Source: Spirochaetales bacterium
GTDB taxonomy: Bacteria; Spirochaetota; Spirochaetia; JAFGXN01
Direction: 5' to 3'
Assembly: GCA_016936615.1 (NCBI GenBank)
Contig: JAFGXN010000050.1
Location: forward strand, 1-61,199
Length of the DNA stretch: 61,199 bases
In this document: positions 2,533-33,903 of the stretch, in pieces
Position numbering within the stretch: the first letter of the stretch is position 1
Layout of the letters: the number at the start of each line of letters is the position of its first letter
The notes under the pieces: generated by a model
Told to the model about the DNA's origin: nothing
Seen by the model: only the letters and a program-made list of their open reading frames with translations
Databases searched by the model: none
Program-made: the position numbers and the translations under genes

Positions 2533-3795
2533 CTATTCAAATTGGGCTTCTTCTAACCTCTTCCTCAAGGCATCAATATCCACAGCCTCACCGAAGTTTG
2601 TCAAAAGCTTAATCTCTACTCGGCGGTTCATCCTCATCCCTTCAGGTGTAGAATTATCGCCACGAGGGACTGTTGCGCCTTTACCATCTGTCATAACTTG
2701 AGTATCCTTTCTCGCTCCGGAATTAATCAAGAATTCAGCTGTAATCCTTGCTCGCTGCTTCGATAGAGTTAATCTGCCAAGCTCTGTTCCTGCAAGAGCA
2801 GTATGCCCTGTTATCAATAGATCAAATGATGGATATTTCTTTAACACTGTCGATAAATTTGTCAAAAGTTCGACCTCTTCAGTTCGTAACTCTGCAGAAT
2901 TTGGATTAAAACCAATTCCCTCAAGAATAATCACCACACCATCACCATCTGGAGATCTCTCAACCTTAGGGTCACTAAACCCATTATCTTTCAAATCCCT
3001 AATCAATCTCTCAATTAGCGAGGTAATATCAATCCTACCATCATCCCTGAACTCACTGCGAGATTTTCCTCGGTGCTCAATCTTCTGACCATCCGAAAGC
3101 CTAAATGTATAATGAAAATCCTCAGTCACGAGGTGAGGCATCCCCAATTCAATATCCCAGGTCAGCTCTTGCATTGATGTACCATAGACTGAGAGAGGAT
3201 ATTGCTTTTTCCCGACAGGAGGTGCTCCAAGATCCTTATAAACTGAATATTTTATTGAAAAAATTGCATACTTTTTCCCATCAACAACCTTATCTTCGAG
3301 ATACTCATACAACACTGTAGCAGGAATCTGAAATGGTCTATCAATCGAGTAAGATCTCCTGAAGTCGTGCATCTCTGACCCCTTTCCTATCCACCTATCA
3401 CCAGGATAAAGCTCTTTTTCAGGGAAAGAGGGAATATCTCTTACAACTGGCATAAAGAAGCCCTCAGCATCTGAATGTATCCCAAACTTAGACCTGCGAT
3501 ACATAGACTCATAGACCCTATCAAGCTCATACGAGTGATCCATGGTCGACTTTCTCTCAGAGAGATAGAACCTTGATCTTATCATTGCAATATCATCAAG
3601 AACATCTAGCACAGAGTGAGATGATCGGTTCAACAAAGTCGCGGTATGAGAAAAATTATTATTCTTATAGACATCTTGGACAACTGTCGTAACTACAGAA
3701 AACCTATCTCCTTCATTGGCTGAGTACTCAAACTGCACAGCATTAGCAAGCGGTAAGCTTAAAAGAAAAAGTAAACCTAAAATTTTCATCCTCAT
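2533..3795 (-). CDS. OmpA-family exported protein (C-terminal OmpA-like peptidoglycan-binding domain)
   Basis: C-terminal motifs ITGHTA...SKQRARITAEFL...NRRVEIKL. Start moved to ATG 3795 (MRMKILGLLFLLSLPLANA signal peptide), preceded by AGAGGAAG. The track ORF extends to 3855. Confidence 0.75.
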   Translation of the reverse strand: MRMKILGLLFLLSLPLANAVQFEYSANEGDRFSVVTTVVQDVYKNNNFSHTATLLNRSSHSVLDVLDDIAMIRSRFYLSERKSTMDHSYELDRVYESMYRRSKFGIHSDAEGFFMPVVRDIPSFPEKELYPGDRWIGKGSEMHDFRRSYSIDRPFQIPATVLYEYLEDKVVDGKKYAIFSIKYSVYKDLGAPPVGKKQYPLSVYGTSMQELTWDIELGMPHLVTEDFHYTFRLSDGQKIEHRGKSRSEFRDDGRIDITSLIERLIRDLKDNGFSDPKVERSPDGDGVVIILEGIGFNPNSAELRTEEVELLTNLSTVLKKYPSFDLLITGHTALAGTELGRLTLSKQRARITAEFLINSGARKDTQVMTDGKGATVPRGDNSTPEGMRMNRRVEIKLLTNFGEAVDIDALRKRLEEAQFE

Positions 3796-7763: not shown

Positions 7764-9896
7764 TCACCGTATCAAATCTGTTCGATTTATCCAACCCTGC
7801 AGACCATATCCAGTATCTACAAGAAGATAAGAACCTGCCTCGCCTAGTACCTTTACAGCTGTCCCAGCAGGTAGGTTTATTATTTCTCTCGAATCTGACT
7901 TAGGAATATTCAAGAGACTGCTAGACTCTTTGCAGATTTCCATCCAATCATCCACGTTGCTTTTTGTAATAAAAAACCCTGACCCACTTCCAACTACCAG
8001 AAGGAACAGCATGACACCTACGACAACTAGCCAATTATTCCTTTTTAATATCCAAATTGATACTAAGAGAAGAAAAATATTCGATAAGACTATCAAAAGA
8101 ATAAGAAAGATATCTGGATCCAACACCACATTTGAACCAAGCTGATTGCCAAGATTATACTCTCGCTCAAGCTCATGCAAAAAAACTACAAATTCTTGTC
8201 GTCCAGGATCTTTTCTTATCGCATATCTAGCAAAATAGATTGATTGGGCAACATCACCCATCTGAAAGCTTGCTAAAGATAGATTAAATGCCAAAAATGA
8301 GTTATCTGGCTCATAATCTAGCCCTTTCTGAAAAAATCCGCAAGACTCCTTGAAATCTCCTCTCTCGTATGCAGAGAGACCCAACTCTAAATTATCTAAA
8401 AATTCCTGTTCAAAATTGAACTCCTCAATAACAGTTTCTTCGACAACATCCACTTCTACGATGTCTTCAATATCAGAAATAGCAGGAAGGGTTAACTCCT
8501 CCTCAATATCATCAACTTGCCCAAAGAAGATACCAGGAATCAGCAGAAAACAGAGCATAAGAATAGTACTAGATGCAACAACCCTCTTTTTACCCTTAAT
8601 TTTTTTTCTTAAGAAACAGCCAAAGACTACAAAAAACACAATTATCCCAGGTAAGAACAACAACAAAGCCCATCTCTGACGAAAAAGGCTCAATCTCCTA
8701 TGGTGAAGAACCTCCTCGACTCCCTTAGGCTGATAGACAGTCTTCTGTTGACTTGCAATAATCTCACCTCGCTGGCGATTCATAATATCAATAACAAATT
8801 TTTTCCCTGCCTGAGTCTTCGTAGAATATGAATCACTTGGAGAGAGCCATACAAAGCTTGGAACAACAATAGCACCTTGACTAACATCATCTGGAACATA
8901 GACATACCTGACAGATTTACTCCCGGTATAACCTTTTCTAGATGGAACAATATCCATAGTCTCAATCTTATCAACAAAGAGAAACCCCTCCACGACTGGT
9001 TCCGGGATCTGAAGAAAGTTCAAATTCCCCTCACCAGAGACTGTAAGAAGAATAGAAATACGACCATCAGAGTAGACTCGATTATTATCTACCGAGTAAG
9101 AATAGGAGAAGCTTCCTATGGCGCCAGTTAGCTCGATCTCCTTAGGTATAGGCTTAATCTGAATCTTAACAGAATCTCCAGAAACTGTCTCTCCATCTGC
9201 GCTCATCCTAAATCGAGGAAGAACCATATCTCCTGCACTAGTAGGGGTTAGCATATATGAGACAAGTGGCAGGTTCAAAAGTGTATATTCACCAATCTGT
9301 CGTCGCTCAATCAGGCCGAAGTTGGTTGTCTCGCTCAAAATTGCCTTGTAGGGATTTTCGACAACAAGATTATCCACCAAAGGAACTTCTAACAAATTCT
9401 CAAGTCCAATATAGACTGGTCTAGCCTCACCCACAAAGAGAGAATCAAACGAATAGCCCCAAACAGCAGACTGCGGGACAATGATATCTCCGCGGCTATA
9501 CCGCCCGACTTTAAGAACTAGTTGCTCAGACTTGAAGCTTCCAAGGCTAGTCTCAAAAGAAAACGGCGGTAATATATTTATACCGACCTTCAATGCTCGA
9601 CATGAAAGCTTTAAATTCATCTTTACCACATCTACATCATCGCTTGAAAAATAACTAAACTCTGGCGCCCCTAAGACCTCGAAGGCATCAGACTCTGGCG
9701 CTGTATAATCAAAAAATTCGCCTTGAAAATTTTCAAAGGTAAAACTTAGAACAAACCTGCTATTTTGCGCAACTGGATTTGGATCGATAGAGACATCTAC
9801 AGCAAAGCCAATTGAGCCAAAAAAAACAAAGAGAGTAGCAATTACCAATCGTTTTGAATATCTTGTGATCTTTCTTTCTCTTGAGAATATCCCCAT
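7764..9896 (-). CDS. batD: BatD-like protein fused to a BatE-like TPR plus SH3b module
   Basis: 710 aa. Signal peptide and a large beta-rich exported region, then two TM segments, a TPR segment (YERGDFKESCGFFQKGLDYEPDN...), two more TM segments, and a C-terminal SH3b-like segment (PAGTAVKVLGEAGSYLLVDTGYGLQGWINRTDL). SD AGGAG precedes ATG 9896. Confidence 0.6.
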   Translation of the reverse strand: MGIFSRERKITRYSKRLVIATLFVFFGSIGFAVDVSIDPNPVAQNSRFVLSFTFENFQGEFFDYTAPESDAFEVLGAPEFSYFSSDDVDVVKMNLKLSCRALKVGINILPPFSFETSLGSFKSEQLVLKVGRYSRGDIIVPQSAVWGYSFDSLFVGEARPVYIGLENLLEVPLVDNLVVENPYKAILSETTNFGLIERRQIGEYTLLNLPLVSYMLTPTSAGDMVLPRFRMSADGETVSGDSVKIQIKPIPKEIELTGAIGSFSYSYSVDNNRVYSDGRISILLTVSGEGNLNFLQIPEPVVEGFLFVDKIETMDIVPSRKGYTGSKSVRYVYVPDDVSQGAIVVPSFVWLSPSDSYSTKTQAGKKFVIDIMNRQRGEIIASQQKTVYQPKGVEEVLHHRRLSLFRQRWALLLFLPGIIVFFVVFGCFLRKKIKGKKRVVASSTILMLCFLLIPGIFFGQVDDIEEELTLPAISDIEDIVEVDVVEETVIEEFNFEQEFLDNLELGLSAYERGDFKESCGFFQKGLDYEPDNSFLAFNLSLASFQMGDVAQSIYFARYAIRKDPGRQEFVVFLHELEREYNLGNQLGSNVVLDPDIFLILLIVLSNIFLLLVSIWILKRNNWLVVVGVMLFLLVVGSGSGFFITKSNVDDWMEICKESSSLLNIPKSDSREIINLPAGTAVKVLGEAGSYLLVDTGYGLQGWINRTDLIR

Positions 9897-10426
9897 TGTC
9901 TTATCTCCTGTCTTTTTACATAATTTAATAGATTAGAATGCCTTCTTGAGTCCGAATTCCTGTTCGAAGAACTTGAACTAACTCCTTCGCCGGTATTCTT
10001 TAACGTATCAATCTTCAATATAGTCAGCTCCAAGTTCCGCTTAGCTTCAATGCTAGAAGGCTTTAGAATAAGAGCATTCTTGAATGAATCAAATGCTAAA
10101 GAATAGCTAGCTTGATCAAAATAGAGGACTCCACGATTAAACTCTATCCTGAATTTCAGCTCACCATCAACACCCTGACTGATTTTATCCCACTCCTCGA
10201 TAGCTGAACCTTTTTCGCCTAGAAGATAATAGACATTTCCTAGATTATATTGAACTATCTCATTCTCATTCTTCTCTAAAACCTTGAGATACTTATATGT
10301 CGAGAGATGGTAATTCCCCTTCTGATAATCGTAATTCGCCTCAGATATCCAGAAAGTGTCAGACATCCTACTGCATGAAAGGCTAAAAAAAAGCAGAATC
10401 AACAATACTATATAATTTTTTTCCAT
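9842..10426 (-). CDS. batC: BatC-like TPR lipoprotein
   Basis: Start taken at ATG 10426 (MEKNYIVLLILLFFSLSCS, lipobox-like), with AAGGGGA upstream. TPR repeats (YDYQKGNYHLSTYKYLKVLE, LGNVYYLLGEKGSAIEEWDK). Confidence 0.6.
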   Translation of the reverse strand: MEKNYIVLLILLFFSLSCSRMSDTFWISEANYDYQKGNYHLSTYKYLKVLEKNENEIVQYNLGNVYYLLGEKGSAIEEWDKISQGVDGELKFRIEFNRGVLYFDQASYSLAFDSFKNALILKPSSIEAKRNLELTILKIDTLKNTGEGVSSSSSNRNSDSRRHSNLLNYVKRQEIRQWGYSQEKERSQDIQNDW

Positions 10427-11394
10427 TTTGTCCCCTTCACCAAAAGATACAAACACAACATTATCCAAGCAGCAAAAGCAAAGATTCTATACTTGTCAGG
10501 ATATTCAACTCGAGTCGAGTCCTTGCCAATTTTCTGATTCTCTTCGTTCAAGACCTTCAGCAATTTACTGATTATCAGATTATCAGATAATACAAAATAA
10601 TTACCGCTAACACTTGTAGCAATATTTTCTAGAAGCCCAAAATTAGGTCGCGAAACAACAGGTGCACCTCGACTGTCAAGAAGTTCCTTTCCATCTGGAG
10701 AATAAATTTTACCACCATCTGCAGAACCAACCGCAACCACGTTTAAAAGAATCCGGAGATTTTCCGCCTCCTGAGAAATTTTCCCAATGTCGATACTCTG
10801 CTCCCCACCATCTGTAAACAAAAAAACCATCTTCATCGTATCAGAGTGGTCCGAAAAAGCAGAGAATCCCTCCAAAATTCCAGACTCTAGGTCAGTACCA
10901 GGCGAAGCAAGCAGATCTGGATACAAAGAATCTAAGACATAATAGACAGTCTCCACATTCTCTGTCAAAGGGACAACCACCTCCGCACTACCTCGGAAGA
11001 CAACAACAGAATATCTAAGATTCTTCCACGAAGAGACTAGACTCTTGATAGTATCAGAGACCCTATCCAATCTTGAAGGGAGAATATCGTCAGAACTCAT
11101 ACTGTTTGAAATATCCACAACAAAGACAATATCAAGCCCACGAGAATTCTCAGCCTTGATATCTTTTGTCCACATAAAACCAGCAAGAGCAAATATCAAT
11201 AAGACATAGGCAAATATCAAGAACAGAGATAAAAGGAATTTTTTTATAAAATAGATATCTTTTATCCTCTCGCCCTTTGCGGATCTATTTATCTTCTTCA
11301 ATATCCTCGAGGTTCTGTAATAATTAAAAAGTAAAATTCCAATTAACGGAACTAACCCGAATAAGGCCCAAAATACTTGTGGATTTTTCACCAT
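10408..11394 (-). CDS. batB: VWA-domain membrane protein (BatB-like)
   Basis: 328 aa. N-terminal TM segments, VWA MIDAS motif DIVFVVDISNSM, C-terminal TM. Its ATG shares 1 nt with the batA stop (TAATG). Confidence 0.7.
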   Translation of the reverse strand: MVKNPQVFWALFGLVPLIGILLFNYYRTSRILKKINRSAKGERIKDIYFIKKFLLSLFLIFAYVLLIFALAGFMWTKDIKAENSRGLDIVFVVDISNSMSSDDILPSRLDRVSDTIKSLVSSWKNLRYSVVVFRGSAEVVVPLTENVETVYYVLDSLYPDLLASPGTDLESGILEGFSAFSDHSDTMKMVFLFTDGGEQSIDIGKISQEAENLRILLNVVAVGSADGGKIYSPDGKELLDSRGAPVVSRPNFGLLENIATSVSGNYFVLSDNLIISKLLKVLNEENQKIGKDSTRVEYPDKYRIFAFAAWIMLCLYLLVKGTKWKKII

Positions 11395-12413
11395 TAAAAG
11401 ACCTCCAACAGAACAACTTTAAAAATAAAAATTGACGAGAAAACAAGGATTAGTGACGCAACTAGAAATCTTCTATGTATTGGACGGGTAATATTTTTTA
11501 TAACATAGTCACTTTTTACAGACTCAAGCGAGTCAATAATCTCAAATGATTTCTCAAATGTGGTATAGTTTGTCACAGGAATAAATTTACCTCCAGATAC
11601 CATAGAAATTTTCTCTAGAAGCTCTCTATTAAAATTCGCATCAGCAACTGCCTCAACAATATAATCCCCATCACGATATGAAAAGCTCTCAGTTGAATTA
11701 GTACCTATCCCAATAGAATATATTTTAATTCCCAAAGAAGCAGAAATTTCAGCAGCTGTCATAGGCTGAATATCTCCACCGATATTATTCCCATCCGTAA
11801 TCAATATTATAATTTTCTCCTCTGCGCTAGAATCTCTCAAGAACCTGCACGCCGAAGCAATCCCAACCCCGATCGCGGAGGATTTACCAGCCTCAAGCAA
11901 CTTTATATCATCAATCTCACGAAGCAATGAGGAATAATCCACCGTTGGTGCGACTCGAACAAATGCGTTTGTTCCAAAAGAGATCAAACCGATTGAATCA
12001 TTCTCTCGAGACTTTACAAAATCAGAGAGAACACGCTTTGCGGAATCCAAACGATTCTCATCCTCAACATCTCCGAGCCTAACATCTTTGATTGCCATAC
12101 TCGGCGATTGATCGACAACAAGCATTATATCTAGCCCACGTGATGAATAGACCTTAACCTTTTCAACCTCCATAGGACCTGCTAAAGCAATTATCAGTGT
12201 GGAAAACCCTATCCAAAATGCAAGATTTCCAATAAGCACAAGAAGAACTATAAAATACTGACTTATCCGCAATTTCTCACCTGGCCAATCAACGATAGGA
12301 AGAAGAATTCGCCCTCCACGTTTATTCCAAAAATGGTAAAAATAGATTCCAAGAGGTAGAAAAACAAATAAAAAAAGATATACTGGCTGATCAAAAACCA
12401 TTCTTCCCTCCAT
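11394..12413 (-). CDS. batA: VWA-domain membrane protein (BatA-like)
   Basis: 339 aa. Two N-terminal TM segments, MIDAS motif DIMLVVDQSPSM, C-terminal TM. Confidence 0.7.
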   Translation of the reverse strand: MEGRMVFDQPVYLFLFVFLPLGIYFYHFWNKRGGRILLPIVDWPGEKLRISQYFIVLLVLIGNLAFWIGFSTLIIALAGPMEVEKVKVYSSRGLDIMLVVDQSPSMAIKDVRLGDVEDENRLDSAKRVLSDFVKSRENDSIGLISFGTNAFVRVAPTVDYSSLLREIDDIKLLEAGKSSAIGVGIASACRFLRDSSAEEKIIILITDGNNIGGDIQPMTAAEISASLGIKIYSIGIGTNSTESFSYRDGDYIVEAVADANFNRELLEKISMVSGGKFIPVTNYTTFEKSFEIIDSLESVKSDYVIKNITRPIHRRFLVASLILVFSSIFIFKVVLLEVF

Positions 12414-13332
12414 CTAACTGAACATCGTTCTGAATCTCCTCGATATCCTGCCTCTTTTTAAGCAAAATCAACTCATTACAAACAGAAATCAGCTCTTGAG
12501 CATCCTGCTTCTTCTTCTCAGGTGAAATCTTCATCCCACCAAACTTTATCCTATCAGCATCAACAAAGATTTTTTTAAGAAACTCTTTTATTGGCATAGA
12601 TATCTTCATTGAATCGAGAATCCCTAGAATCTCACTTGTTGTCGTAGAGATAAAATCCTTCTCATAAAGATGCCCAAGAAAAAACCTGAGATGATCTAAC
12701 AAAACAGTGTAAAAATCATTTGCACTCACAGAGAGATAACTATCAGACAATCTAGAGACATCTTTAAAGAACTTCTTGATAGGTCTTTGTCCCTTAAAAA
12801 ATCGCTCCAAATAGAGAAAAAGCTTCTTGATACGACCAGAAAATATTAAGACAAAAACAGGAATTATAAGCAAAAAAAGCACTAGCGAGATAGTCATAAA
12901 CCTAGTACCTGGCAACGCCATTGGCCCGCGAATGCTAGACAAGGTATTTATTCCAGGCTCAAGTGAAGACTCAGTCTTCAGAACAACATCTTTAAGAACA
13001 ATCCCACCGAGATTTATATCTGAAAGAAGAAAGCTACCTGAAAAAAAAGGAGTATAAACAATCCTTACTGTATATTTCTTCATATTTTTGTCTTCTGGAA
13101 TAACCTTAATCTCACGAACCTCTATCCATGAGTTGTTCAACTGCTCAAGATCAGTAGGCGCCTCAAGCTTTGCAGGTTCTCTTAATCGCAGACTAAGGCT
13201 ATGCTCGACACTATCTCCAATATACGAAGGCGAAGGAAAAGAGGTTGCCTTACCAAGGATTTCATATTCAGGAGATGCATATATGGATAGATTAAGTATG
13301 AAAAAAATAAAAAGTACCAATCGCTGTCTCAT
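12391..13332 (-). CDS. hypothetical signal-peptide/single-TM protein of the Bat-type operon
   Basis: 313 aa. Signal peptide MRQRLVLFIFFILNLSIYA and a central TM (FMTISLVLFLLIIPVFVLIF). ATGA overlap with the upstream DUF58 gene. Confidence 0.6.
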   Translation of the reverse strand: MRQRLVLFIFFILNLSIYASPEYEILGKATSFPSPSYIGDSVEHSLSLRLREPAKLEAPTDLEQLNNSWIEVREIKVIPEDKNMKKYTVRIVYTPFFSGSFLLSDINLGGIVLKDVVLKTESSLEPGINTLSSIRGPMALPGTRFMTISLVLFLLIIPVFVLIFSGRIKKLFLYLERFFKGQRPIKKFFKDVSRLSDSYLSVSANDFYTVLLDHLRFFLGHLYEKDFISTTTSEILGILDSMKISMPIKEFLKKIFVDADRIKFGGMKISPEKKKQDAQELISVCNELILLKKRQDIEEIQNDVQLDGGKNGF

Positions 13333-14201
13333 TTGTGCCTCCTGCTAAAAAATTTCATTAACTCTTTAACTGGATCATCATTTGTATCCACAACTAAAGT
13401 CTCAATTCCACGGCGACTACACTCTTTTTTCCAAAAATAATCCTGATCTTCGCGAAACAGCTTATATTTCTTTGCAAATTTCTTCGAATTTACGAAAAAA
13501 GATGATGATTTACCAGTCTCAGGATCTTCTATTCGAGTAAACCCCATAAAATCCAGGTTGTAATCGATAGGATCTGTGACTTTTATTGCAATTACATCAT
13601 GCTTCTTCGCCAAAAGAGTCAACTCCTTCCAGCCTGAGGTTGTCTTAAAATCTGAGATAATAACGCAAATTCCACGTCTCTTCATTGATTTGTAGACAGT
13701 ACTAACTGCAAGCCCTAGATCCGAACCCTTTCCCTCAGGATTTAGATTCATCATATCATTAACAAGTCTAGTAACCTGCTTTTGTCCCTTCCCTGAAGCA
13801 ACCCACTTCTCAATTCTATCCGAGAAAAAGACAGCACCAACCCGATCATTGTTGTAGACAGCAGCATATGAGAGCAAAGAGGTAACTAATCCTACCATCT
13901 CCCGACGCGGATACTTTCCCACTCCGTAATCTACAGAAGCTGAAACATCGATGATAAAGAAGAAGTTCATCTCTCTCTCTTCTCGAAACTTCTTCGAATA
14001 TGGAGAATTCATTCTCGAGGTAACATTCCACTCAATATTCCTCACATCATCGCCAAAGACATACTCCCTAACCTCATCAAACTCAAGCCCCGGCCCCCGG
14101 AATGCAGATCTATAGTTACCTGCAAAGATCCCGTCAGCTAGTTTCTTCGAGATTAAGGATAAATTTTTTACCCTTTTATGAAGAAACCTATAATCCATCA
14201 A
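13329..14201 (-). CDS. DUF58-family protein (MoxR partner)
   Basis: 290 aa. DUF58 signature GDDVRNIEWNVTSR and a degenerate VWA-like core (FFIIDVSASV). ATGA overlap with moxR. Confidence 0.8.
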   Translation of the reverse strand: MMDYRFLHKRVKNLSLISKKLADGIFAGNYRSAFRGPGLEFDEVREYVFGDDVRNIEWNVTSRMNSPYSKKFREEREMNFFFIIDVSASVDYGVGKYPRREMVGLVTSLLSYAAVYNNDRVGAVFFSDRIEKWVASGKGQKQVTRLVNDMMNLNPEGKGSDLGLAVSTVYKSMKRRGICVIISDFKTTSGWKELTLLAKKHDVIAIKVTDPIDYNLDFMGFTRIEDPETGKSSSFFVNSKKFAKKYKLFREDQDYFWKKECSRRGIETLVVDTNDDPVKELMKFFSRRHK

Positions 14202-15196
14202 GGAACCTGTACTACTTTTAATATCTGCTCGATAACATCCTCTGGAGATAACTCTTCAGACTCAGCCTCATATGACAAGACAATTCTGTGCCGCAGAACA
14301 TTCTTTGCAACTGTCTTAACATCATCAGGAACAACAAAGCATCTGCCCTCAAGCAACGCTCGAACCTTCGCACATCGATATAGACACAATGTGGCTCGTG
14401 GAGAAGCCCCATACTCAATATATTTTACATAGTTTAAGGAAAATCTATCAGTCGCCCTTGATGCTGCAACAATAGATACTATATATTTTTCAATTCTCTC
14501 ATCCACAAGAATTGAATCAGCAACTTTCTTAATCGCTTCTATTTTCTGGGCATCTAATAACTTCGACGTCTTTATCTCATGTTCAACACCCATCAATTTT
14601 AAGATCTCATACTCCTCGTCTGCACTTGGATAATCAACCTTAACCTTCATCGCAAACCTATCTAGCTGGGCTTCAGGCAAAGGATATGTTCCCTCTTGTT
14701 CGATTGGATTCTGAGTCGCAAGAACAAAAAACGGCTTGGGGAGCTGGTATGAGACATCACCGATTGTTACCTGCCCCTCCTGCATTGCTTCAAGTAGCGC
14801 AGATTGGACCTTAGCTGGCGCTCGATTTATCTCATCAGCAAGAATTATATTAGCAAAGACTGGACCTTTTCTTGCAACAAAATCCCCTGTCTGAGGTCGA
14901 TATGTCATAGAACCAACAAGATCTGCTGGCAAAAGATCTGGCGTGAACTGAATTCGCTTATAATCTAGATCTATCACCTGAGCCAAAGTCTTTATTGCCA
15001 AAGTCTTAGCAATACCTGGCACACCTTCAAGCAGTAGGTGACCTGAAGAAAAAAGCCCAATCAATAAACTTTCTATCATAGAGTGCTGGCCAACAATCTT
15101 TTTTCCAAGCTCTTCCCGAATCTCAGAAATCAATTTATTTGTCTCCAACACATTTTTCTCAATCAATTTTACATCAATCATTATATTTTCTCCCAA
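14198..15196 (-). CDS. MoxR-family AAA+ ATPase
   Basis: 332 aa. Walker A GVPGIAKT, Walker B IILADEINRA, and QSALLEAMQEGQVTI...ATQNPIEQEGTYPLPEAQLDRF. Confidence 0.9.
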   Translation of the reverse strand: MGENIMIDVKLIEKNVLETNKLISEIREELGKKIVGQHSMIESLLIGLFSSGHLLLEGVPGIAKTLAIKTLAQVIDLDYKRIQFTPDLLPADLVGSMTYRPQTGDFVARKGPVFANIILADEINRAPAKVQSALLEAMQEGQVTIGDVSYQLPKPFFVLATQNPIEQEGTYPLPEAQLDRFAMKVKVDYPSADEEYEILKLMGVEHEIKTSKLLDAQKIEAIKKVADSILVDERIEKYIVSIVAASRATDRFSLNYVKYIEYGASPRATLCLYRCAKVRALLEGRCFVVPDDVKTVAKNVLRHRIVLSYEAESEELSPEDVIEQILKVVQVP

Positions 15197-25275: not shown

Positions 25276-26238
25276 ATGGAATCTTCAAATTTAAAAATTG
25301 ATTTAGATTTTTCAAATACAACTATCAATAAACTCAAGAATGGAATTGCTACAGTGATAAAGGGTAAAGAAAACTTTATAGAGTTGCTACTTTCCTCGCT
25401 TATCGCAAACGGCCACATTCTTCTCGAAGATCTTCCAGGTCTTGGCAAGACTACAGCAGCTAAGGCGCTTGCAGCCTTGATATCCAAAGATGAGACAGAA
25501 TTCCCGCTCTTCAATAGAATTCAATTCACTCCAGACTTGCTACCATACGATATCACTGGAGTCGACATATTTGACCCTAAAGAGAACTCTTTCACATTCA
25601 GACGAGGTCCTGTATTCACAACAATCCTGCTCGCCGACGAGATTAACAGAGCAACACCCAAAGTACAATCAGCGCTACTCGAAGCAATGGGCGAAGGACA
25701 GGTTACAATCGGACTGACCACGTACAAGCTAGAGAAACTTTTCTTTGTTATAGCAACTCAGAACCCGCTCGACATGGAGGGAACCTACCCTTTGCCAATG
25801 GCACAGCTTGACAGATTCCTAATGAAGTTAAAGGTAGGTTATCCTGATTCAAATTTTGAAAAAGAGATTGTAATGCTAGAACCAGCCAGAACAATGCTAA
25901 AAAAGCTAACCCCAGTTTGCAGTGTTGCAGATATCAGCAATCTCCAGGAGATGGCTAACCAGGTCTATTGCGATGAGAAACTTATAGATATTGCGGTAAG
26001 AATTTGTCAAAATACGAGAAAGATTCCAGTTGTCGAATATGGGATATCTCCGAGAGGATGTATAATGCTAATCAGAGCTGCTAGAGCTTTTGCACTTATC
26101 AAGGGCAGAGACTATGTTGTGGAACAAGATATCGTAGATATTAGCATCCCAGTCCTTGCTCACAGGCTTAAACTAAGAGATCTCCAATTCAATAGTGAAA
26201 ATATCATCAGGGAGGCAACAGTTGCATCGATTAAGTAG
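25276..26238 (+). CDS. MoxR-family AAA+ ATPase (second copy)
   Basis: 320 aa. Walker A DLPGLGKT, Walker B ILLADEINRA, and QSALLEAMGEGQVTI...ATQNPLDMEGTYPLPMAQLDRF. Confidence 0.9.
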   Translation: MESSNLKIDLDFSNTTINKLKNGIATVIKGKENFIELLLSSLIANGHILLEDLPGLGKTTAAKALAALISKDETEFPLFNRIQFTPDLLPYDITGVDIFDPKENSFTFRRGPVFTTILLADEINRATPKVQSALLEAMGEGQVTIGLTTYKLEKLFFVIATQNPLDMEGTYPLPMAQLDRFLMKLKVGYPDSNFEKEIVMLEPARTMLKKLTPVCSVADISNLQEMANQVYCDEKLIDIAVRICQNTRKIPVVEYGISPRGCIMLIRAARAFALIKGRDYVVEQDIVDISIPVLAHRLKLRDLQFNSENIIREATVASIK

Positions 26239-26391
26239 ATTACAAAATTTCTTCTACGACAGCCCGCTATCCCTGAAGGGATTATCTTTTTTTTTATCTC
26301 AATAGTATTCTTCGTATATGGGCTGATCAAGAGTAGCCCCTCCGGAATTATTCTCGCTGGAGTCCTCGCAATCTTAGTAATATCTCTGACA

Positions 26392-27519
26392 ATGATAAAT
26401 TTCTTATATAGCTACTACCTAAAGCAGTTTTTACAAGAAAAAAACATCTCAGAATCTCTAAACTACAAGACAGATAGCATAAGGGCTAATGACGAGTTTA
26501 AAATTTTCCTAAATATTGATCTACCAAAGATCTTCATCCCGGGAATTACAACAATGCTGAGCCAAGACTTTGAATTCGCGACTAGGGATAAGTTTGAGAT
26601 AAAGATTGGGCTAAAATTTGGAAGAAACCACAGAGTAATAGCTGCAAATGCCCCGTCTCGAGGTGAGTACAAATCCCAAAATATTAGGATTACAACTAGC
26701 GATGTTCTGGGATTTTCACGAAGCATTATAGAATTTGATGCAAGAAAAAAGATCATTGTCTACCCTAACCAGATTCTATACACAAAAGAGAATGAGACCC
26801 CTGCGTCAGGAGGGAAAAAACTAATAAATTCAAAAGAGACAAGAAAAAACGAGGCCTTAACAGATTTAAAAAAATACTATCCAGGAGATGATCTGCGCAA
26901 AATCAACTGGAAGGTATTTGCAACCTCAAAAGAACTCTATGTCAGGCAAGAAGATATCGAAGCAATGCCAGACTCAATGTCTTTTTTTGTCCTGAATATC
27001 GACCTTTCTGAAACAAACTCAAAACAACAGGAAAGAGCTAACTACCTAGATAGAATTATTGAACTTTTCACTGCACTTGTAACCTCAGAAATCTCCACTA
27101 AAGGAAGTGCCTGCGTTGCAATACCTGGACGACACCTAGAGATCTACGACTCATCATCAATAAGCAGATTTCTCAAAGAGGTTTCATCTATCTGGATCTC
27201 TGACTCGTTCAAAAAGCTAGAGATTGAGGGAATAAGTAATTCAGCAGTGAATATTATAAGTTTTCCATCTGAAAAAAAACTTGAAACAATTGTCTCAACA
27301 CTTAGACAGAACAAGAATACATTGAATATCTTCTTCAAAGATAACTACAAGGCGACAAACAAGATGGTTAGAGCCTCAATACTTAATTTTATCTACAAAA
27401 AAAGCGATTCACGACAGAGACATTTTCTTCTTGAAAAGGATAAGACTCTCGCAGCAAAGATTGACAAAACCATACAGACAATACTTAATCAGTCGGAGGT
27501 CAAAATTGAAAGGCTCTGA
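26392..27519 (+). CDS. DUF58-family protein (second copy); intact ORF from the first ATG, true N-terminus probably upstream (see finding)
   Basis: DUF58 signature YYPGDDLRKINWKVFATSKELYVRQE. The 153 nt upstream are open in frame and TM-coding. An SD plus TTG 26222 lies in the adjacent frame and connects through T9 (26287-26295). Confidence 0.7.
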   Translation: MINFLYSYYLKQFLQEKNISESLNYKTDSIRANDEFKIFLNIDLPKIFIPGITTMLSQDFEFATRDKFEIKIGLKFGRNHRVIAANAPSRGEYKSQNIRITTSDVLGFSRSIIEFDARKKIIVYPNQILYTKENETPASGGKKLINSKETRKNEALTDLKKYYPGDDLRKINWKVFATSKELYVRQEDIEAMPDSMSFFVLNIDLSETNSKQQERANYLDRIIELFTALVTSEISTKGSACVAIPGRHLEIYDSSSISRFLKEVSSIWISDSFKKLEIEGISNSAVNIISFPSEKKLETIVSTLRQNKNTLNIFFKDNYKATNKMVRASILNFIYKKSDSRQRHFLLEKDKTLAAKIDKTIQTILNQSEVKIERL

Positions 27520-29587
27520 AAATCTGTCAAAATACCTAATATTCAGCTTGCGAAATATTCTTCTATTGATAACAACCTTCTCGTGGTTTCTGATAGTAAA
27601 GGAGAGCTTAGACCTTCCTTTCGCAATCGCAGCCTATGCTGCATCAATCTTTCTCGCCTTTATATTTGAAAAAAACAATTTTCGATTTCTATCATCATTA
27701 ATACTGCTTATGTCGACAGCTGCAATTCTCCGATGGATAATCTTCTTAGTTTTTCTAGTCGCAAGCAGGGATGGGAAATACAATGTTGATATGCAATACA
27801 TCTTTTTTGATGTAAATCTCCTTGCAGTTATTCCTCCATGTATCTTCCTGTGGATTAACAACTTCTTCTCGCTTCGCCACAATAAATACAAGGTCTTTGA
27901 GATTTTCATAAATATTCCCTCATTTATAGTGGTTTTCACCTTCCTGAGCAAGCAGAACTTGAATATTTTCAAGAATCCATCGACAGTGATAGTCATCATT
28001 GGCTTTGTCCTATTTTTAAATACGATTCTACTTTTTATCTACACAAGAGAGAAGAACCTTTTCTCAAGCAGAACTCAGTATTTTTCTTTTCTGTTATCAG
28101 TGATCCCAATAGCACTGGTAAGTTTCTTCTTTTTTTACGATTTTTATGAAGAAAAAGCTAAAAAAACCTCAGAATCACTTGTCCACTCAGGGATAGCAGG
28201 AATAGACTTTGCGAATTTCTCAGAATTATCTCCAGAATTAAAGCAAAATACTGACCTTATTTTCATCATCAAGGCTGATAATTTTAAAAACGGAACCCTA
28301 TACAAGCGATATATCTTCCCACGCTACGAGCGAGGGAAAGGTTTCTTCATCCGGGAATCTGACAAAGATTTTCTCGAACCATTATACATAACTCAGCCAC
28401 TTATCCAGAACAAGAGCAGAGCCCAATATCTGACCATGCAAGAGACATTCTCAGACACTATCTACAGTGTTAATCTCAAAAAAAACTCCATAGTAAGTGC
28501 TGGATGTTTCAAAACTATTGAACTGCTCGAATTAAATAGCTATTCAAACTTCAACTACGCCTTCAATTCGTATTACAATGAAACTACAGCAAACAAAAGC
28601 CATACCTCAACCATAATTGAGATTCCAAGCGACCAACTAAGCATCTATCTTGAACATGATGATAAAGGAAGAATTCGAACACTTACAGAAGAGATAACAA
28701 ATTCCTCCACAAATATCTATCACAAGGCAGAGGCGATATCGACCTACCTGCAAAAAAACTACTACTATTCTCTTCGACCAGGAATAGTAGGAAAGGATGC
28801 TATAGAAAAATTCCTTTTTGATGAAAAAAAAGGGTATTGCTCATACTTTGCAAATTCCATGGCAATTATGTGTCGAACAATAGGAATCCCAACCCGAGTT
28901 ATAGCTGGGTTCAAACTTGAAGAGACAGAAGAGATTATGAATCTACGCCCTGTGTATGGATATATGGCTCACTCATGGGTTGAAGTCTATGTGCCCGAAT
29001 CTGGCTGGGTCACTTTTGATCCAACCTCTGACCAGCTTCATCCTAGTGAGAACTACACATTCTCCCCAGTTGATTCTCAAGAGTTTAAAAAACTTGCAGG
29101 ACTTGTTCTACAGGAACAATTTCAAATCAACTCAGAAACTGACCGACAAGATCAAAGTGATCAGCAACAAGATGGATTTAAGATCTGGTACTGGTTTTTA
29201 CCATTTTTATACATACTAATTATTACAACAACAAAACACATGTATTTACTACTAAGTCTTATTGTTAGAAATTTAAGAAAAAAAACCCTACTTAAGTTTC
29301 GTCATGTAAAATATATCCTTAGTAACCTTGGAATATATGAAAAAACAACTGAGACAGAAACAGAATACCTCATATATGTAAGTAATATCCTCAATGTAGA
29401 TCTAAGAAAGCTTGATTCTCTACACCAAAAAGCTCTCTACTCGAGGGAGTTCACCTCTTCAGATTACAAAGAGTTTATCTCAGAAGCAAAAAATTTCAGA
29501 AAGGTAATAAGGAAAAAATACAAACCTCTCTACAGGATATTTGGAATCCTCAAACCTTTTGGATTTATCAAGCGAGGCAGAAGATGA
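27506..29587 (+). CDS. TgpA-like membrane transglutaminase
   Basis: N-terminal multi-TM block. Transglutaminase core with Cys (KGYCSYFANS), His (MAHSWVEVY) and Asp (VTFDPT), plus a C-terminal TM. Start taken at TTG 27506, preceded by GGAGG (27494-27498). The track ATG 27431 would overlap DUF58 by 89 nt. Confidence 0.8.
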   Translation: MKGSENLSKYLIFSLRNILLLITTFSWFLIVKESLDLPFAIAAYAASIFLAFIFEKNNFRFLSSLILLMSTAAILRWIIFLVFLVASRDGKYNVDMQYIFFDVNLLAVIPPCIFLWINNFFSLRHNKYKVFEIFINIPSFIVVFTFLSKQNLNIFKNPSTVIVIIGFVLFLNTILLFIYTREKNLFSSRTQYFSFLLSVIPIALVSFFFFYDFYEEKAKKTSESLVHSGIAGIDFANFSELSPELKQNTDLIFIIKADNFKNGTLYKRYIFPRYERGKGFFIRESDKDFLEPLYITQPLIQNKSRAQYLTMQETFSDTIYSVNLKKNSIVSAGCFKTIELLELNSYSNFNYAFNSYYNETTANKSHTSTIIEIPSDQLSIYLEHDDKGRIRTLTEEITNSSTNIYHKAEAISTYLQKNYYYSLRPGIVGKDAIEKFLFDEKKGYCSYFANSMAIMCRTIGIPTRVIAGFKLEETEEIMNLRPVYGYMAHSWVEVYVPESGWVTFDPTSDQLHPSENYTFSPVDSQEFKKLAGLVLQEQFQINSETDRQDQSDQQQDGFKIWYWFLPFLYILIITTTKHMYLLLSLIVRNLRKKTLLKFRHVKYILSNLGIYEKTTETETEYLIYVSNILNVDLRKLDSLHQKALYSREFTSSDYKEFISEAKNFRKVIRKKYKPLYRIFGILKPFGFIKRGRR

Positions 29588-31299
29588 AAAAGATATTTTT
29601 AATTTCACTTTTTTCTATAATAATAAATATAGCATATTCTCAAGAACAGGATGCTCGGTCATACATAGAGTATTTGCAACAGGCCTCAATTGCAAAAGAG
29701 GCTGGAGCCTACGACAAGGCACTCCGGGAGCTATATTCCGCAGCAGAACTGAATCCGAAGAGAATGCCAGCATACTTTGAAATCGGAAAAATCTTCTACG
29801 AGAAGGAGTTGTATGAGAATGCGATAGAAAGCTTTAACAAAGCACTAAAAATAAAAAAGCTAGACTACAACACATTATACTACAAAGCTCTTTCACTCTC
29901 TCTTCTTGGAAAAACCGAGGAATCATTTAAAGTATTTTCTATAATAGAAGAAAATTTTAAGACAACAAACGATTTTCTGTACGAGTATGCATGGGTCTGT
30001 TTGAAATCATACAGATTGAACAAGGCAGAAGAACTTGCGATAAAACTCTACAATAGTGAAGCTAATTTTTTTTCCACCTTCCTGCTAGGAAATGTTTACT
30101 CCCTACTTGATAGATATGAAAAATCAAATATCTTCTATCTACAAGCACTTGCCTTCGCAGAGAAAAGCAAGAATAGCAACTTTATCTCATCTACCTACTA
30201 CAATCTTGCATATCTTGAGAAGGAGTCCTCAAACATAGAGAAGGCAGAAGAGTATGCAAAGAAGTCGATTGAGATCCTTCCCCGCTTCACATCCTTCCTG
30301 CTGCTAGGAGATCTAGCGCTTAACAAGAACCAACTCACCGAGGCTCACAACTACTACAACAAAGCCTACAATAAATCGCCTAATCCTCTGACACAACAGA
30401 AGATTGCAGAGATTCTTCTTTTACAAGGAAAGCTCGAAGAGGCAGAATTCCTAATCCAGCACATATTTGATGCATTCAACCAGGAGAAGATCTCTTTATA
30501 CACGATAAATGTTGGAAATGACTCATTCCTAGCACAACTCAACCTGCTGAATAGAGATTTGCAAATAGCAAAAAACAACCGGCAAATTATAACAAGCCGT
30601 GGGAAATTACTAGTACGAGCTAGGCTTTTTTTCCAAAAAAAAATAAAGATAAAATATCTCGACAATATCTACAAAAAATACATAATAAAAGATAGTCTCA
30701 AAAAGGTAAGGCACTCTGAGAATAGCCAAGGATTTCTGACACTAGCAATCGCAAACAAAAATTATAAAAAGACAGCTAACAAGTATCTCGAGAAAGCAAG
30801 CCAGACAACAGATGATAAAAAGATAGAAAGAAGAATAGAGATTGCTAGGCTACACATCAATAAGAAGAATATTGAACTTGCACAAACAATTCTAGAGAAC
30901 CAGCAAGAGATAAGCGCTAAAGAGCGAAACAGAATAATGCTAGAAATACTCGGAAAATGTGGAGAATTTGATAGGAAAATCTTCTCATTAGCAATACAAC
31001 ATTCTCCAGCAATATATGCAAATAATTTCAAGAGAATAAAGGTCTTTGCTCAAGAGGAAGAGAAAGAAGAACTCAAAAATATCTTTAGCCAGGGAATATT
31101 CAAATTCACAAACGAACAAGAGTCATGGGCAAAGCTGAAGATAGTTGATAACAGCGAGAAGAGGAAACAAATTATTCTTCTTGATCATTCAAACAATATT
31201 ATCTTCGCATACAATACAGAAAGCTACCAGATAACCAAGAAAAACATCAGCACAATCTATAATGACTTTGTCTCCGAACTCTTCGGCCTTCCAAGATAG
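29584..31299 (+). CDS. exported TPR-repeat protein
   Basis: 571 aa. Signal peptide MKKIFLISLFSIIINIAYS and multiple TPR-like repeats. ATGA overlap with the transglutaminase stop. Confidence 0.7.
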   Translation: MKKIFLISLFSIIINIAYSQEQDARSYIEYLQQASIAKEAGAYDKALRELYSAAELNPKRMPAYFEIGKIFYEKELYENAIESFNKALKIKKLDYNTLYYKALSLSLLGKTEESFKVFSIIEENFKTTNDFLYEYAWVCLKSYRLNKAEELAIKLYNSEANFFSTFLLGNVYSLLDRYEKSNIFYLQALAFAEKSKNSNFISSTYYNLAYLEKESSNIEKAEEYAKKSIEILPRFTSFLLLGDLALNKNQLTEAHNYYNKAYNKSPNPLTQQKIAEILLLQGKLEEAEFLIQHIFDAFNQEKISLYTINVGNDSFLAQLNLLNRDLQIAKNNRQIITSRGKLLVRARLFFQKKIKIKYLDNIYKKYIIKDSLKKVRHSENSQGFLTLAIANKNYKKTANKYLEKASQTTDDKKIERRIEIARLHINKKNIELAQTILENQQEISAKERNRIMLEILGKCGEFDRKIFSLAIQHSPAIYANNFKRIKVFAQEEEKEELKNIFSQGIFKFTNEQESWAKLKIVDNSEKRKQIILLDHSNNIIFAYNTESYQITKKNISTIYNDFVSELFGLPR

Positions 31300-32234
31300 T
31301 TCTCTTCGACATCACGAATAAAGCCCAAGATAGAATTAAAGAGAGGTCTCTGCAAGCTTGTATAAAGAAAGAGACAATGATGCTTTCTCTTCAAACCTGA
31401 CACATCAAGCGATTCCGCCCTGACTTGAGGAGATTTAAGCCTCTGCTGGATTCTCAACAAATTCTGATATGGAACAGTTGCATCGCTTCGAGCATGAATT
31501 ATATATGCGGGAGATTGAATCTTTGGCAACTCCTTCCCTATCTTCTTAAGATTCATATACAAGCTATAAGTCTGCTTAGGATAGATACCATTATAACCAA
31601 CCCAATTCTCATAACCATCTTGATCAGAATCACTCTTAGCCTTTAACTCTGGTCTAAATTTTTTGATAAAGAAAGAAAGAGGTCGAATGACATAGAATGC
31701 AGGTTCATGTATTACAAAAAAAGGATATACTGAGTTCAAGAAGACTGGTGCTGCAATGGTGGTGATTGTATCTGGCATATCATCAGGAGAATTAAACTCC
31801 TCTGCAAGCTTCAATGTCAACGCGCCACCCATTGAAGTCCCAACAATATGAACCTCTTCATATTTCGCTCTCAAGCCAAGATAGTATTCACGAAGAAATG
31901 CATACCATGTAGAAAAATTCATATCTAACAGATGGTCGGGATGTGTTCCAAAGCCAGGCATTCGAGGAGCAAAGACATCAAATCCAGCCTCATCAGCAAA
32001 ATCTCCAGGGCTTCGATAGACAGATGGAGTAGACGGAAAGCCGTGAACAAAAAGCATAGCCTTTTTCCTTCCTTTCTCAATAGAAAAGGAGTCAGCCTCA
32101 GGAACAAAGACCTTATCTGCTGTTCGGTGGCTCCAATCCTTTGCTTTTTCTCGAAAGAACAAAGGATGATTATTTATCAAAAATAACAAAATTATCACAA
32201 AAATAACTGAACATATTACTATAATTGCATCCAT
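31257..32234 (-). CDS. membrane-anchored alpha/beta hydrolase (esterase/lysophospholipase-like)
   Basis: 325 aa. N-terminal TM, HGFPSTP oxyanion region, and nucleophile elbow GTSMGG. Confidence 0.7.
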   Translation of the reverse strand: MDAIIVICSVIFVIILLFLINNHPLFFREKAKDWSHRTADKVFVPEADSFSIEKGRKKAMLFVHGFPSTPSVYRSPGDFADEAGFDVFAPRMPGFGTHPDHLLDMNFSTWYAFLREYYLGLRAKYEEVHIVGTSMGGALTLKLAEEFNSPDDMPDTITTIAAPVFLNSVYPFFVIHEPAFYVIRPLSFFIKKFRPELKAKSDSDQDGYENWVGYNGIYPKQTYSLYMNLKKIGKELPKIQSPAYIIHARSDATVPYQNLLRIQQRLKSPQVRAESLDVSGLKRKHHCLFLYTSLQRPLFNSILGFIRDVEENYLGRPKSSETKSL

Positions 32235-32319
32235 TTTAATAGAATAATTTTTTTTTCTTAAAAAAACAACGCTTTATCCTTATTATTTAATTAAAAAGCT
32301 AAAAAAAAATAAATTTTTA

Positions 32320-32376: not shown

Positions 32377-33903
32377 GTGATATTACATTATGAATTTATT
32401 AAAGTTGCAAAAAAGTTTAAAGATAAAGATGCAATCGTAGACCATACAACAGGGAAGACCTTATCTTACAAGAAGGCGCTAATCGCCTCTTTCATATTAG
32501 AGAACAAACTTTCAAGCAACAAAGAAGAAAATGTTGGAATACTATTACCAACTTCAGCTGGAGCAATGCTTTCTATACTTGCTTCATGGATATCAGGAAA
32601 GACCCCTGTAATGATAAACTACAGCATGGGAGTTGAAGAAAATTGTGAATTTGCTCGTAAGAAATGCAATTTTTCAACAATAATAACTTCTAAAGCATTC
32701 TTAATTAAAATGAGAATGAAACCTAGCGAGAATATGATTTTTCTAGAAGACATATTATCGAATGTATCAAAGGTTGACAAGATCAAGGCCTTGATCAAAT
32801 CTCTCGGTAGTGCAGAAAGTGTCATAAAGAGGATTGCAAAAGTTGACGAGGACAAGAATATTGTAATACTTTTTACAAGTGGAAGCGAGAAAGAACCAAA
32901 GGCTGTCCCTCTAACACATAAGAATATTGGAACAAATGTTACAGATATTATTAAGGTATTCAAATTATCAGACAAGGATATAATCTTCAGCATTCTACCT
33001 CTTTTCCATGTCTTTGGATTTAACACACTTTTTGCAGTACCAATAACAATGGGAATGACAATCAACACCTATGCGAACCCGCTTGACTTTAAGAAAGTGC
33101 CTGAACTTGTGCGAGAGACTGGTTCGACACTGATGGCCTCTACACCAGCATTTCTCGGAGGATATCTCCGCGAAGCTAAGCCAAATGACTTTGCCAAGAT
33201 GCAGAATCTTGTCGCTGGAGCAGACAAACTCCCAGAATGGATTCGAGCTGGATACAAGAAAGATCACGGTGTAGAAGTGCTTGAAGGCTATGGTGCAACT
33301 GAGACCAGCCCAGTAATCTCTACAAACCTAATCGGAGCAAACAAGCCTGGAAGTATCGGACAGGTAATGCCAAGCCTCAAAGTCAAAATAATCTCCGAAG
33401 ATGGCAAAGTGCTCTCAGCTGGCGAACAGGGTAAAATCCTTGTAAAAGGCGACAGCGTCTTCTCTGGCTACCTTGACGGTGAAGCTCAAACAAAGGCTGC
33501 ATTTATCGACGGATGGTATGATACCGGAGATATAGGAATTCTAGACGAAGATGGCTTTCTCTGGCACAAAGGTAGGGCAAAGCGATTTGAGAAGATTGGT
33601 GGCGAGATGGTCTCACTTATCAAGATTGAGAATATACTTGAGGCTCTTCTTCCAAGCGGTACAGATTGTTGCGTAGTAGGCATCCCTGACGAGAAGAAAG
33701 GAACCAAGCTCGTAGCAGCAATCACAAACACAGAGATAGATGAGAATGAGATAAAAAAAGAGATGCTTGCAACTCTACCTGCAATCGCAGTACCAAAACA
33801 ATTTATGTATTTTGACAACCTTCCTAAGATGGGAAGTGGAAAGATTGCATTCCGAGAAATTGAGAAAATGGTAAAGAACAAACTAGAAGAAATTAAGGAA
33901 TAA
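32377..33903 (+). CDS. AMP-forming acyl-ACP/acyl-CoA synthetase (Aas C-terminal-domain-like)
   Basis: 508 aa with a GTG start. Adenylation motifs LFTSGSEKEPKAV, EGYGATETSP, GWYDTGDIG, and KMGSGKI at the C-terminus. Confidence 0.8.
   Translation: MILHYEFIKVAKKFKDKDAIVDHTTGKTLSYKKALIASFILENKLSSNKEENVGILLPTSAGAMLSILASWISGKTPVMINYSMGVEENCEFARKKCNFSTIITSKAFLIKMRMKPSENMIFLEDILSNVSKVDKIKALIKSLGSAESVIKRIAKVDEDKNIVILFTSGSEKEPKAVPLTHKNIGTNVTDIIKVFKLSDKDIIFSILPLFHVFGFNTLFAVPITMGMTINTYANPLDFKKVPELVRETGSTLMASTPAFLGGYLREAKPNDFAKMQNLVAGADKLPEWIRAGYKKDHGVEVLEGYGATETSPVISTNLIGANKPGSIGQVMPSLKVKIISEDGKVLSAGEQGKILVKGDSVFSGYLDGEAQTKAAFIDGWYDTGDIGILDEDGFLWHKGRAKRFEKIGGEMVSLIKIENILEALLPSGTDCCVVGIPDEKKGTKLVAAITNTEIDENEIKKEMLATLPAIAVPKQFMYFDNLPKMGSGKIAFREIEKMVKNKLEEIKE

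Follow-up and report, generated by a model that had tools for sequence, protein, structure and literature searches.

The second MoxR module of a 61,199-nucleotide (nt) contig from a Spirochaetales bacterium (GenBank assembly GCA_016936615.1, contig JAFGXN010000050.1, analysed over its whole length and referred to below as the window) raises the question of how its DUF58 gene can give rise to a full-length protein, as the start signal of this gene and the stretch encoding most of its product lie in different reading frames that meet in a run of nine T's (T9). The answer we favour is that some form of programmed recoding takes place at T9, for which we estimate a probability of roughly 85% from comparisons with related loci. 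Whether RNA polymerase or the ribosome would be responsible for the change of frame is a separate matter, and is considered after the evidence that the split itself is genuine.

The upstream gene of the module, moxR-2 (25276-26238, on the plus strand, as are all features of this module given below), encodes a MoxR-type AAA+ ATPase of 320 amino acids (aa; Pfam AAA_3, 1e-57, with AAA_lid_2 and bpMoxR) and stops at TAG 26236-26238. Its last 17 nt are shared with the DUF58 leader, whose start is marked by the Shine-Dalgarno (SD) sequence GGAGG (26211-26215) followed, after a 6-nt spacer, by TTG 26222-26224. From this TTG, a first open reading frame (ORF1; 26222-26305), which we treat as the zero frame, runs through 27 codons (MHRLSRLQNFFYDSPLSLKGLSFFLSQ) to the stop TAG 26303-26305. 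An additional in-frame GTG is present 5' of the TTG at 26195, but it is replaced by GCG in both close relatives described below, where GGAGG-N6-TTG is invariant. The T9 run (26287-26295) occupies ORF1 codons 22-25 (tcT TTT TTT TTa) and contains the in-phase heptamers U_UUU_UUU (26287-26293) and U_UUU_UUA (26290-26296). The remainder of the protein is encoded by ORF2 in the -1 frame (26293-27519, stop TGA 27517-27519), which corresponds to residues 25-432 of the joined product.

Standard decoding from TTG 26222 ends after 27 codons and leaves ~408 DUF58 codons in the -1 frame. This DUF58 frame, which is also the moxR frame, is open from 26239, and holds 51 codons without ATG, GTG or TTG until ATG 26392, where the mechanically called ORF starts. 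One added T, or a -1 shift, within T9 gives a protein of 432 aa in which hydropathy indicates two hydrophobic segments, taken here as transmembrane (TM) helices. The region encoding TM helix 1 (TM1; LSFFFISIVFFVYGLI, 26282-26328, residues ~21-36) spans the frameshift site and has no start codon inside it, and ATG 26392 falls inside the region encoding TM helix 2 (TM2; GIILAGVLAILVISLTMINFLY, 26344-26409, residues ~42-63). Since the -1 frame offers no start codon before this ATG within TM2, production of full-length DUF58 needs a change of frame in T9. On rereading of the sequence and of the mechanical ORF list, all coordinates of the preliminary description of this locus were borne out, and so was its central claim that the SD/TTG leader joins the TM-coding body only if the run gains a T or the frame moves by -1 within it, a claim with which the comparison of orthologues agrees. 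The joined protein matches Pfam DUF58 (PF01882) with 26.9 bits against a cut-off of 23.4, and only over residues 217-295, so the recoded protein is, by this profile, a divergent member of the family.

A clustered-protein search (5.8 billion proteins) with the joined protein as the query returned three homologues besides the window's own ORF. The contigs of the close homologues P0002 and P0003 come from a Logan assembly of a different run (L001) and from a Joint Genome Institute (JGI) metagenome (L002), and the joined proteins of these loci are 54% (L001) and 41% (L002) identical to that of the window, with the junction region among the best-conserved parts. Like the gene model of the window (P0001), P0002 and P0003 are truncated and begin within or just 5' of TM2. 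The operon order moxR, DUF58, transglutaminase-like gene, TPR gene is common to the three loci, and moxR orthologues adjoin the same site on its 5' side in L001 (77% identity) and L002 (62%). In all three the TTG start (26222 in the window, 2993 in L001, 5891 in L002) overlaps the moxR end, and AGGGAGGC-N-TTGCA is invariant, with the caveat that the SD stretch also encodes a conserved R-E-A of the MoxR tail, so that its conservation is confounded.

Within the leader, the motif (F/Y)xDSPL(S/T)L(K/R)GxSFF is conserved in the window, L001 and L002, and the protein sequence of TM1 is likewise conserved in both relatives. The T run stands at the same codon in each locus and has exactly nine T's in 3/3 (26287-26295 in the window, 3058-3066 in L001, 5965-5973 in L002); the zero-frame stop follows it by 2-3 codons, as TAG in the window and L001 and as TGA in L002. 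On the 5' side of the run, the -1 frame of the window is open back to the moxR stop without a start codon, and that of the relatives is closed 2-3 codons before the run, by TAA in L001 and by TAG in L002. Because the -1 frame is thus closed just upstream and the zero frame just downstream, the frames of L001 and L002 can be joined only in ~27 nt centred on T9. The preliminary description had proposed to look at orthologous loci for conservation of the T-run length and of the frame, and once these loci were aligned, both proved to be conserved in all three. A fusion of MoxR to DUF58 by read-through of the TAG, suggested by the frame that the two genes share in the window, was dismissed, because the shared frame is interrupted by stops on the way from moxR to the run in both relatives. 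The leader of L001 carries a second long T run (T8, 3019-3026), which lies 31 nt 5' of T9 and is in frame (S-F-F-Y).

Word-indexed, exhaustive representative, genome/metagenome and neighbouring-MoxR searches returned no fourth member of this clade. The next-best MoxR, P0008 (L163 7001-8428), has 475 aa, which is ~150 residues over the usual length, and a precomputed match to the dUTPase family PF00692. Its locus was rejected as a further clade member, as it has a different context, with an ordinary 369-aa DUF58 gene on the 3' side and no transglutaminase gene.

The pattern of nucleotide conservation points to the run itself. In a three-way codon alignment of ~1.3 kb, the longest nucleotide stretch without any difference is that of the TCT codon together with T9 (11 nt; the next is 8), and silent sites are, by all appearances, near saturation, because third positions at residues conserved in all three proteins are identical in only 27% of columns. 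Codon usage in the three genes is 0.20, 0.32 and 0.29 for TCT and 0.59, 0.89 and 0.77 for TTT; multiplying these frequencies ourselves, we arrive at a chance of about 0.003 that TCT-TTT-TTT would be used in all three. To judge from this alignment, selection acts on the nucleotides of the T run themselves. The two reading frames are in turn constrained on different sides of the run. Between the window and L001, the TTG frame 5' of T9 has 9 synonymous and 5 non-synonymous substitutions, as opposed to 3 and 10 when the same stretch is read in the DUF58 frame; 3' of T9, the DUF58 frame has 16 synonymous and 7 non-synonymous substitutions, as opposed to 1 and 21 in the TTG frame. Comparisons with L002 agree, in that the substitution pattern changes frame at the run. 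The mean column identity of the three joined proteins is 68%, and ~408 codons are open in three AT-rich lineages, each of which has one frame break only, at a shared position.

With the alignment of the three proteins as the query, scans of JGI metagenomes and of the species genomes in GTDB gave more distant relatives, 160 loci with 20-31% identity; the matches in genomes include many metagenome-assembled genomes of Spirochaetota. Every distant locus with an alignable N-terminus (>100, by tblastn) has a P(F/L)TxRG motif, TM1, TM2 and the body in one frame. This motif is homologous to the leader motif of the window, and alignments of the joined product (432 aa) to the single-frame relatives continue through the junction. 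In these relatives, the two-helix N-terminus that the preliminary description had ascribed to many membrane-anchored DUF58 proteins is indeed seen. The one-frame organization of these relatives argues that the split is a derived, clade-specific character of a small, deep clade and that the 24-codon leader is the genuine N-terminus of the same protein; ORF1 would then be the true beginning of the DUF58 protein, up to the point where TM1 begins. When 1.84 billion representatives were searched exhaustively with HMMER, nothing intermediate turned up between the clade (P0001, P0003) and the distant relatives, the next match beyond the clade being 30% identical (E = 2e-33). In two distant loci an in-frame T9 is present at the homologous codon (residues 22-26), namely in L150, where GFFFIS is encoded by ggc TTT TTT TTT atc, and in L004, where RFFFLS is encoded by cgc TTT TTT TTT ctg. 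Since both carry the run at exactly this codon, they suggest that the site may have arisen by loss of one T from an ancestral tcT-TTT-TTT-TTT, a Phe-rich TM1 being a coding sequence that readily gives long T runs. The only distant locus with a frame break has it elsewhere (L148, ~1588-1609, at query residues 259/273); an error or a pseudogene is the probable cause, with no connection to T9.

Each of the other explanations for the split has some points in its favour, and these have to be set against the comparative data. If the real genomes had T10 and an uninterrupted gene, the break would be an assembly or sequencing error, and homopolymers are a classic site of such indels; moreover, depth in the one run examined is ~4-6x, and a run of at least ten is absent from the window, L001 and L002. 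The same one-base slip would nevertheless be needed in three independent samples and assemblers, and again in a separate Logan contig of source run X1 (26095-26423), which is identical to the window, has T9 and is accompanied by no alternative contig. Furthermore, no other gene in the window is convincingly broken at a homopolymer run, in spite of 26 A/T runs of at least 8 nt, and the in-frame T9 of L150 and L004 was correctly assembled. The homopolymer error listed in the preliminary description is thus strongly argued against, and we regard it as the least probable of the explanations weighed here. A T9 run alone is not remarkable, as the window, at 38.6% GC, has 4 A/T runs of at least 9 nt versus 4.6 expected from its dinucleotide content; what exceeds chance is that orthologues conserve both the run and its two-frame arrangement. 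In all fetched loci (~1.1 Mb), 630 A/T runs have a length of 7, 208 of 8, 32 of 9 and 3 of at least 10, and nine is about the longest run that these genomes tolerate. The rarity of runs of at least ten (32 of nine versus 3) also bears on phase variation by slipped-strand mispairing of the DNA, in which T9 would be the OFF and T10 the ON state, with all three assemblies OFF: instability would be expected of a T10 ON allele as well, tracts of a single base are hypermutable at this length (PMC1088944, PMC3711429), and minority alleles are invisible in contig-level data. We disfavour this explanation as well and consider it very unlikely. At the level of contigs, tract length is invariant, with no T8, T10 or T11 in three lineages at 41-54% protein identity and T9 also in the X1 contig; a majority of OFF alleles everywhere fits poorly with strong purifying selection on the body of the protein; and a gene that is probably of housekeeping type, for a protein of the cytoplasmic membrane in free-living freshwater or sediment bacteria, is hardly a typical contingency locus. 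Even less probable, in our judgement, is that no recoding occurs because the gene is decaying, or because a 27-aa peptide is made next to a separately started DUF58 protein, begun at a non-canonical codon or, without TM1, at ATG 26392. The gene-caller models P0001, P0002 and P0003 are truncated in exactly this manner, and near-cognate codons (ATT, ATC, ATA, CTG) occur around the run. None of these, however, is conserved in position among the three loci, and the stretch of 30-35 codons that follows T9 up to the first canonical start contains no start codon, encodes TM1 and half of TM2, and is highly conserved at the protein level (the 16 synonymous versus 7 non-synonymous substitutions given above). 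The leader is, in addition, homologous to the N-terminus of the single-frame relatives. Further stops or indels and relaxed constraint, as expected of a pseudogene, were not found in the three loci, and the frame-specific substitution counts speak strongly against both a decaying gene and a protein begun at ATG 26392 without TM1. Among the explanations offered in the preliminary description, this leaves programmed frameshifting or transcriptional slippage standing.

With respect to the mechanism, translation would start at TTG 26222, with its strong SD sequence, while overlapping the end of moxR. In the case of transcriptional slippage, the RNA-DNA hybrid would realign on nine dA:rU pairs, and RNA polymerase would add one untemplated U in part of the transcripts. 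Such U10 transcripts, to which U7 would be equivalent, would place ORF1 and ORF2 in frame to give ...KGLSFFFISIV..., and the full-length 432-aa membrane protein with its two helices would come only from that fraction of events in which a -1 move takes place inside T9. Polymerase is favoured over the ribosome because all nine T's are conserved where 6-7 would serve a ribosome, and because no RNA structure that could stimulate ribosomal frameshifting was found. Nine A/T is the classical length for efficient transcriptional slippage in bacteria (PMC1088944, PMC3711429, PMC5009743), and the length at which selection against A/T runs in genes typically begins (PMC1088944, PMC3711429); the T9 of all three loci has the ~9 nt that fill the RNA-DNA hybrid. 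From these considerations we put the odds that transcriptional slippage is the main route at about even, and both routes could contribute.

A programmed -1 ribosomal frameshift would act on unedited U9 mRNA, with Phe/Phe slipping on U_UUU_UUU or Phe/Leu on U_UUU_UUA. A heptamer of the X_XXY_YYZ type is present in the correct phase in all three loci (the second heptamer of L002 is U_UUU_UUG), and an SD-like element (AGGG, AAGG or GAGGTG) precedes the run by 4-6 nt and the second heptamer by ~9 nt, which is roughly the spacing of dnaX-type sites; this element could act as a weak stimulator. The zero-frame stop within 2-3 codons of the run in 3/3 fits such an event as well. On the other hand, no stem-loop or pseudoknot was found 5-9 nt downstream of the heptamer (folding z-scores -0.07 to -0.73), the consensus fold of the downstream region (-5 kcal/mol) has a positive covariation term and hence no covariation support, and no Rfam frameshift element matched. 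The SD-like element can be accounted for by the K/R-G codons, which are conserved in relatives without a frameshift too, and the heptamer alone leaves 2-3 extra invariant T's, including the third position of the Ser codon, unexplained. Slippery heptamers that lack stimulators are, moreover, usually of low efficiency. Several points beyond the phase of the heptamer and the placement of the SD-like element weigh against slippage by the polymerase. Baranov et al. reported that very many A/T runs of 9-10 nt are tolerated in the genes of Borrelia, a spirochaete, and suggested that slippage may be suppressed in organisms of this kind (PMC1088944); as the relatives of the window are spirochaete-like, the same suppression may apply to them. 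In-frame 9-nt runs are found in these genomes, including an A9 in the TPR gene of the window (30635-30643), an A9 in the DUF58 gene of L001 and the T9 of L150 and L004, and such runs are therefore tolerated where slippage would be harmful. Finally, the clade is sampled by three metagenomic sequences, and the site is known from contigs only, at ~4-6x depth and without coverage in the part of a second DNA run (X2) that was read or in three metatranscriptomes of the same study. On balance, a ribosomal shift as the principal mechanism seems possible but doubtful, and transcriptional slippage at T9 is the mechanism that we prefer.

A small hairpin (ATCCC-TGAA-GGGAT, 26269-26282) lies 4 nt 5' of T9 and, with the run, gives a weak intrinsic-terminator-like match. 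It was considered as a conserved slippage or terminator element and rejected, as the hairpin is weak in the window, stronger in L002 and unconvincing in L001.

The U_UUU_UUA heptamer in HIV-1 gag-pol depends on a downstream stem-loop and on eukaryotic ribosomes. The DUF58 site has the same heptamer in the same phase (26290-26296) but, unlike HIV-1, no downstream structure was found. The closest resemblance in run length, direction and extension logic, which are identical, is with mxiE of Shigella flexneri, in which mxiEa and mxiEb are joined by transcriptional slippage at a T9 with insertion of one U, which gives the longer, functional protein (PMC1088944, PMC5009743), and where, as here, the run lies in the overlap of a short ORF with a long one 3' of it. 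Slippage in mxiE also affects the adjacent downstream gene (PMC5009743), and we propose that a comparable effect may exist in the DUF58 operon. However, mxiE encodes a regulator of the AraC type, is carried on a plasmid, serves the secretion system of a pathogen and is known from one genus, whereas the DUF58 gene is chromosomal, encodes a membrane protein and belongs to a MoxR operon of uncultured bacteria from freshwater or sediment; and slippage, which is a proposal here, has been established experimentally for mxiE. With dnaX the site shares its occurrence in a conserved, non-mobile cellular gene. Thermus thermophilus dnaX uses slippage at an A9, and that of Escherichia coli a programmed -1 ribosomal frameshift at A_AAA_AAG (PMC1088944), from which it can be learned that the same outcome is reachable at the transcriptional or the ribosomal level. 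The E. coli site is stimulated by an upstream SD sequence and a downstream hairpin; at the DUF58 site no such hairpin is evident, and the SD-like element is at most a possible stimulator. In dnaX, furthermore, recoding adds a shorter product to that of an intact long ORF, whereas the zero-frame product of DUF58 is a 27-aa stub, which would make recoding obligatory.

The endosymbionts Buchnera and Blochmannia provide a different parallel, as slippage at poly(A) tracts rescues their frameshifted genes, with 12-50% corrected transcripts (PMC5009743). There too, infidelity of the polymerase makes up for a one-base indel in a long homopolymer of a gene that is otherwise conserved. These rescues, however, are of recent origin, each limited to its lineage, and belong to degenerating genomes in which selection is weak; the DUF58 split has been kept in free-living bacteria whose proteins share as little as 41% identity, and its run appears to be selected itself. 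The magnesium-chelatase-like genes of the GeneTack survey also have a conserved -1 transition at poly-A/T in non-mobile prokaryotic genes, and their frameshift was confirmed by reporter assays with an efficiency of up to 63% (Antonov et al. 2013). They differ in that two genes of ~1 kb are fused, while at the DUF58 site a leader of 24 codons and the body it belongs to make up one protein. Neither DUF58 nor MoxR is named in the main text of the survey (PMC3711429). A literature search for frameshifting in DUF58 or MoxR genes likewise returned nothing relevant.

To our knowledge, few bacterial genes outside mobile elements and phages need a frameshift for their expression, namely prfB, dnaX, mxiE and a few others, each of which has been informative on the fidelity of polymerase or ribosome and on the setting of protein ratios. 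While the class of mechanism is known, what would be new here is the gene family, and an obligatory recoding site conserved in a chromosomal, non-mobile operon of free-living spirochaete-like bacteria. If the proposed recoding is true, the membrane protein DUF58, as partner of MoxR, would join the list of frameshift-dependent bacterial genes. Databases would then hold wrong, helix-less models of all three members of the clade, because gene callers truncate each of them inside a membrane helix, and predictions of function and topology for this subfamily would be misled. The site would in addition constitute a clean natural test of slippage at T9 by spirochaete-like RNA polymerases, for which L150 and L004 are possible natural controls.

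The surroundings of the gene suggest what such recoding could bring about. Every gene junction in the second MoxR module is a tight overlap. The start signal of the next gene, GGAGG-N6-TTG (27495-27508), is built like that of DUF58 and lies 14 nt inside the 3' end of the latter, and its equivalent in L001 is GGAG-N7-TTG at 4277. The gene it would serve encodes a transglutaminase-like membrane protein (27506-29587; Pfam Transglut_core, 2e-27) and is syntenic in L001 and L002; the mechanically called ORF starts at TTG 27431, with an 89-nt overlap with DUF58, and the likely start is TTG 27506. It is followed, through an ATGA overlap, by a gene for a TPR-repeat protein (29584-31299; Pfam TPR families), which is syntenic in L001 and L002 as well. 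The position of the transglutaminase start signal within the DUF58 end suggests translational coupling. In this arrangement T9 would be a fixed attenuator by which DUF58 stays sub-stoichiometric to MoxR, and as only 27 codons are read by standard decoding, the efficiency of recoding would set the DUF58:MoxR ratio. The coupled transglutaminase and TPR genes would probably be held down too, via the overlapping SD-TTG start.

A bolder proposal is that T9 is more than a tolerated indel and has been selected as a gate, open to tuning, that controls the whole downstream half of the operon. The efficiency of slippage could in that case depend on the supply of UTP, the speed of transcription, temperature or the small hairpin 5' of the run, and the amounts of DUF58 and, through the overlapping SD-TTG start, of transglutaminase and TPR protein relative to the MoxR ATPase would be decided by slippage. 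If true, this would be one of the rare instances in which free-living bacteria use obligatory recoding to regulate a chromosomal, non-mobile operon or to set its stoichiometry, kept up over family-level divergence. We consider such a gate rather unlikely, and the fixed attenuator described above is what we would propose.

Besides the DUF58 T9, the A/T runs of at least 9 nt in the window are the A9 at 30635-30643, a T9 at 32248-32256 and an A9 at 32301-32309. The first of these is located in the intact 571-aa TPR gene, where a slipping polymerase should truncate part of the TPR protein; otherwise, this in-frame run argues that runs of 9 nt are tolerated without much slippage. The other two lie 45 nt apart between the divergent genes 31257-32234 (minus strand) and 32377-33903 (plus strand). 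The first MoxR module of the window is a Bat-like operon on the minus strand (7764-15196) with genes for MoxR, a canonical DUF58 protein, a 312-aa protein without a Pfam match, two VWA proteins (BatA/BatB-like), a TPR protein and a BatD-domain protein. The DUF58 gene of this first module (13329-14201) scores 193 bits against Pfam DUF58.

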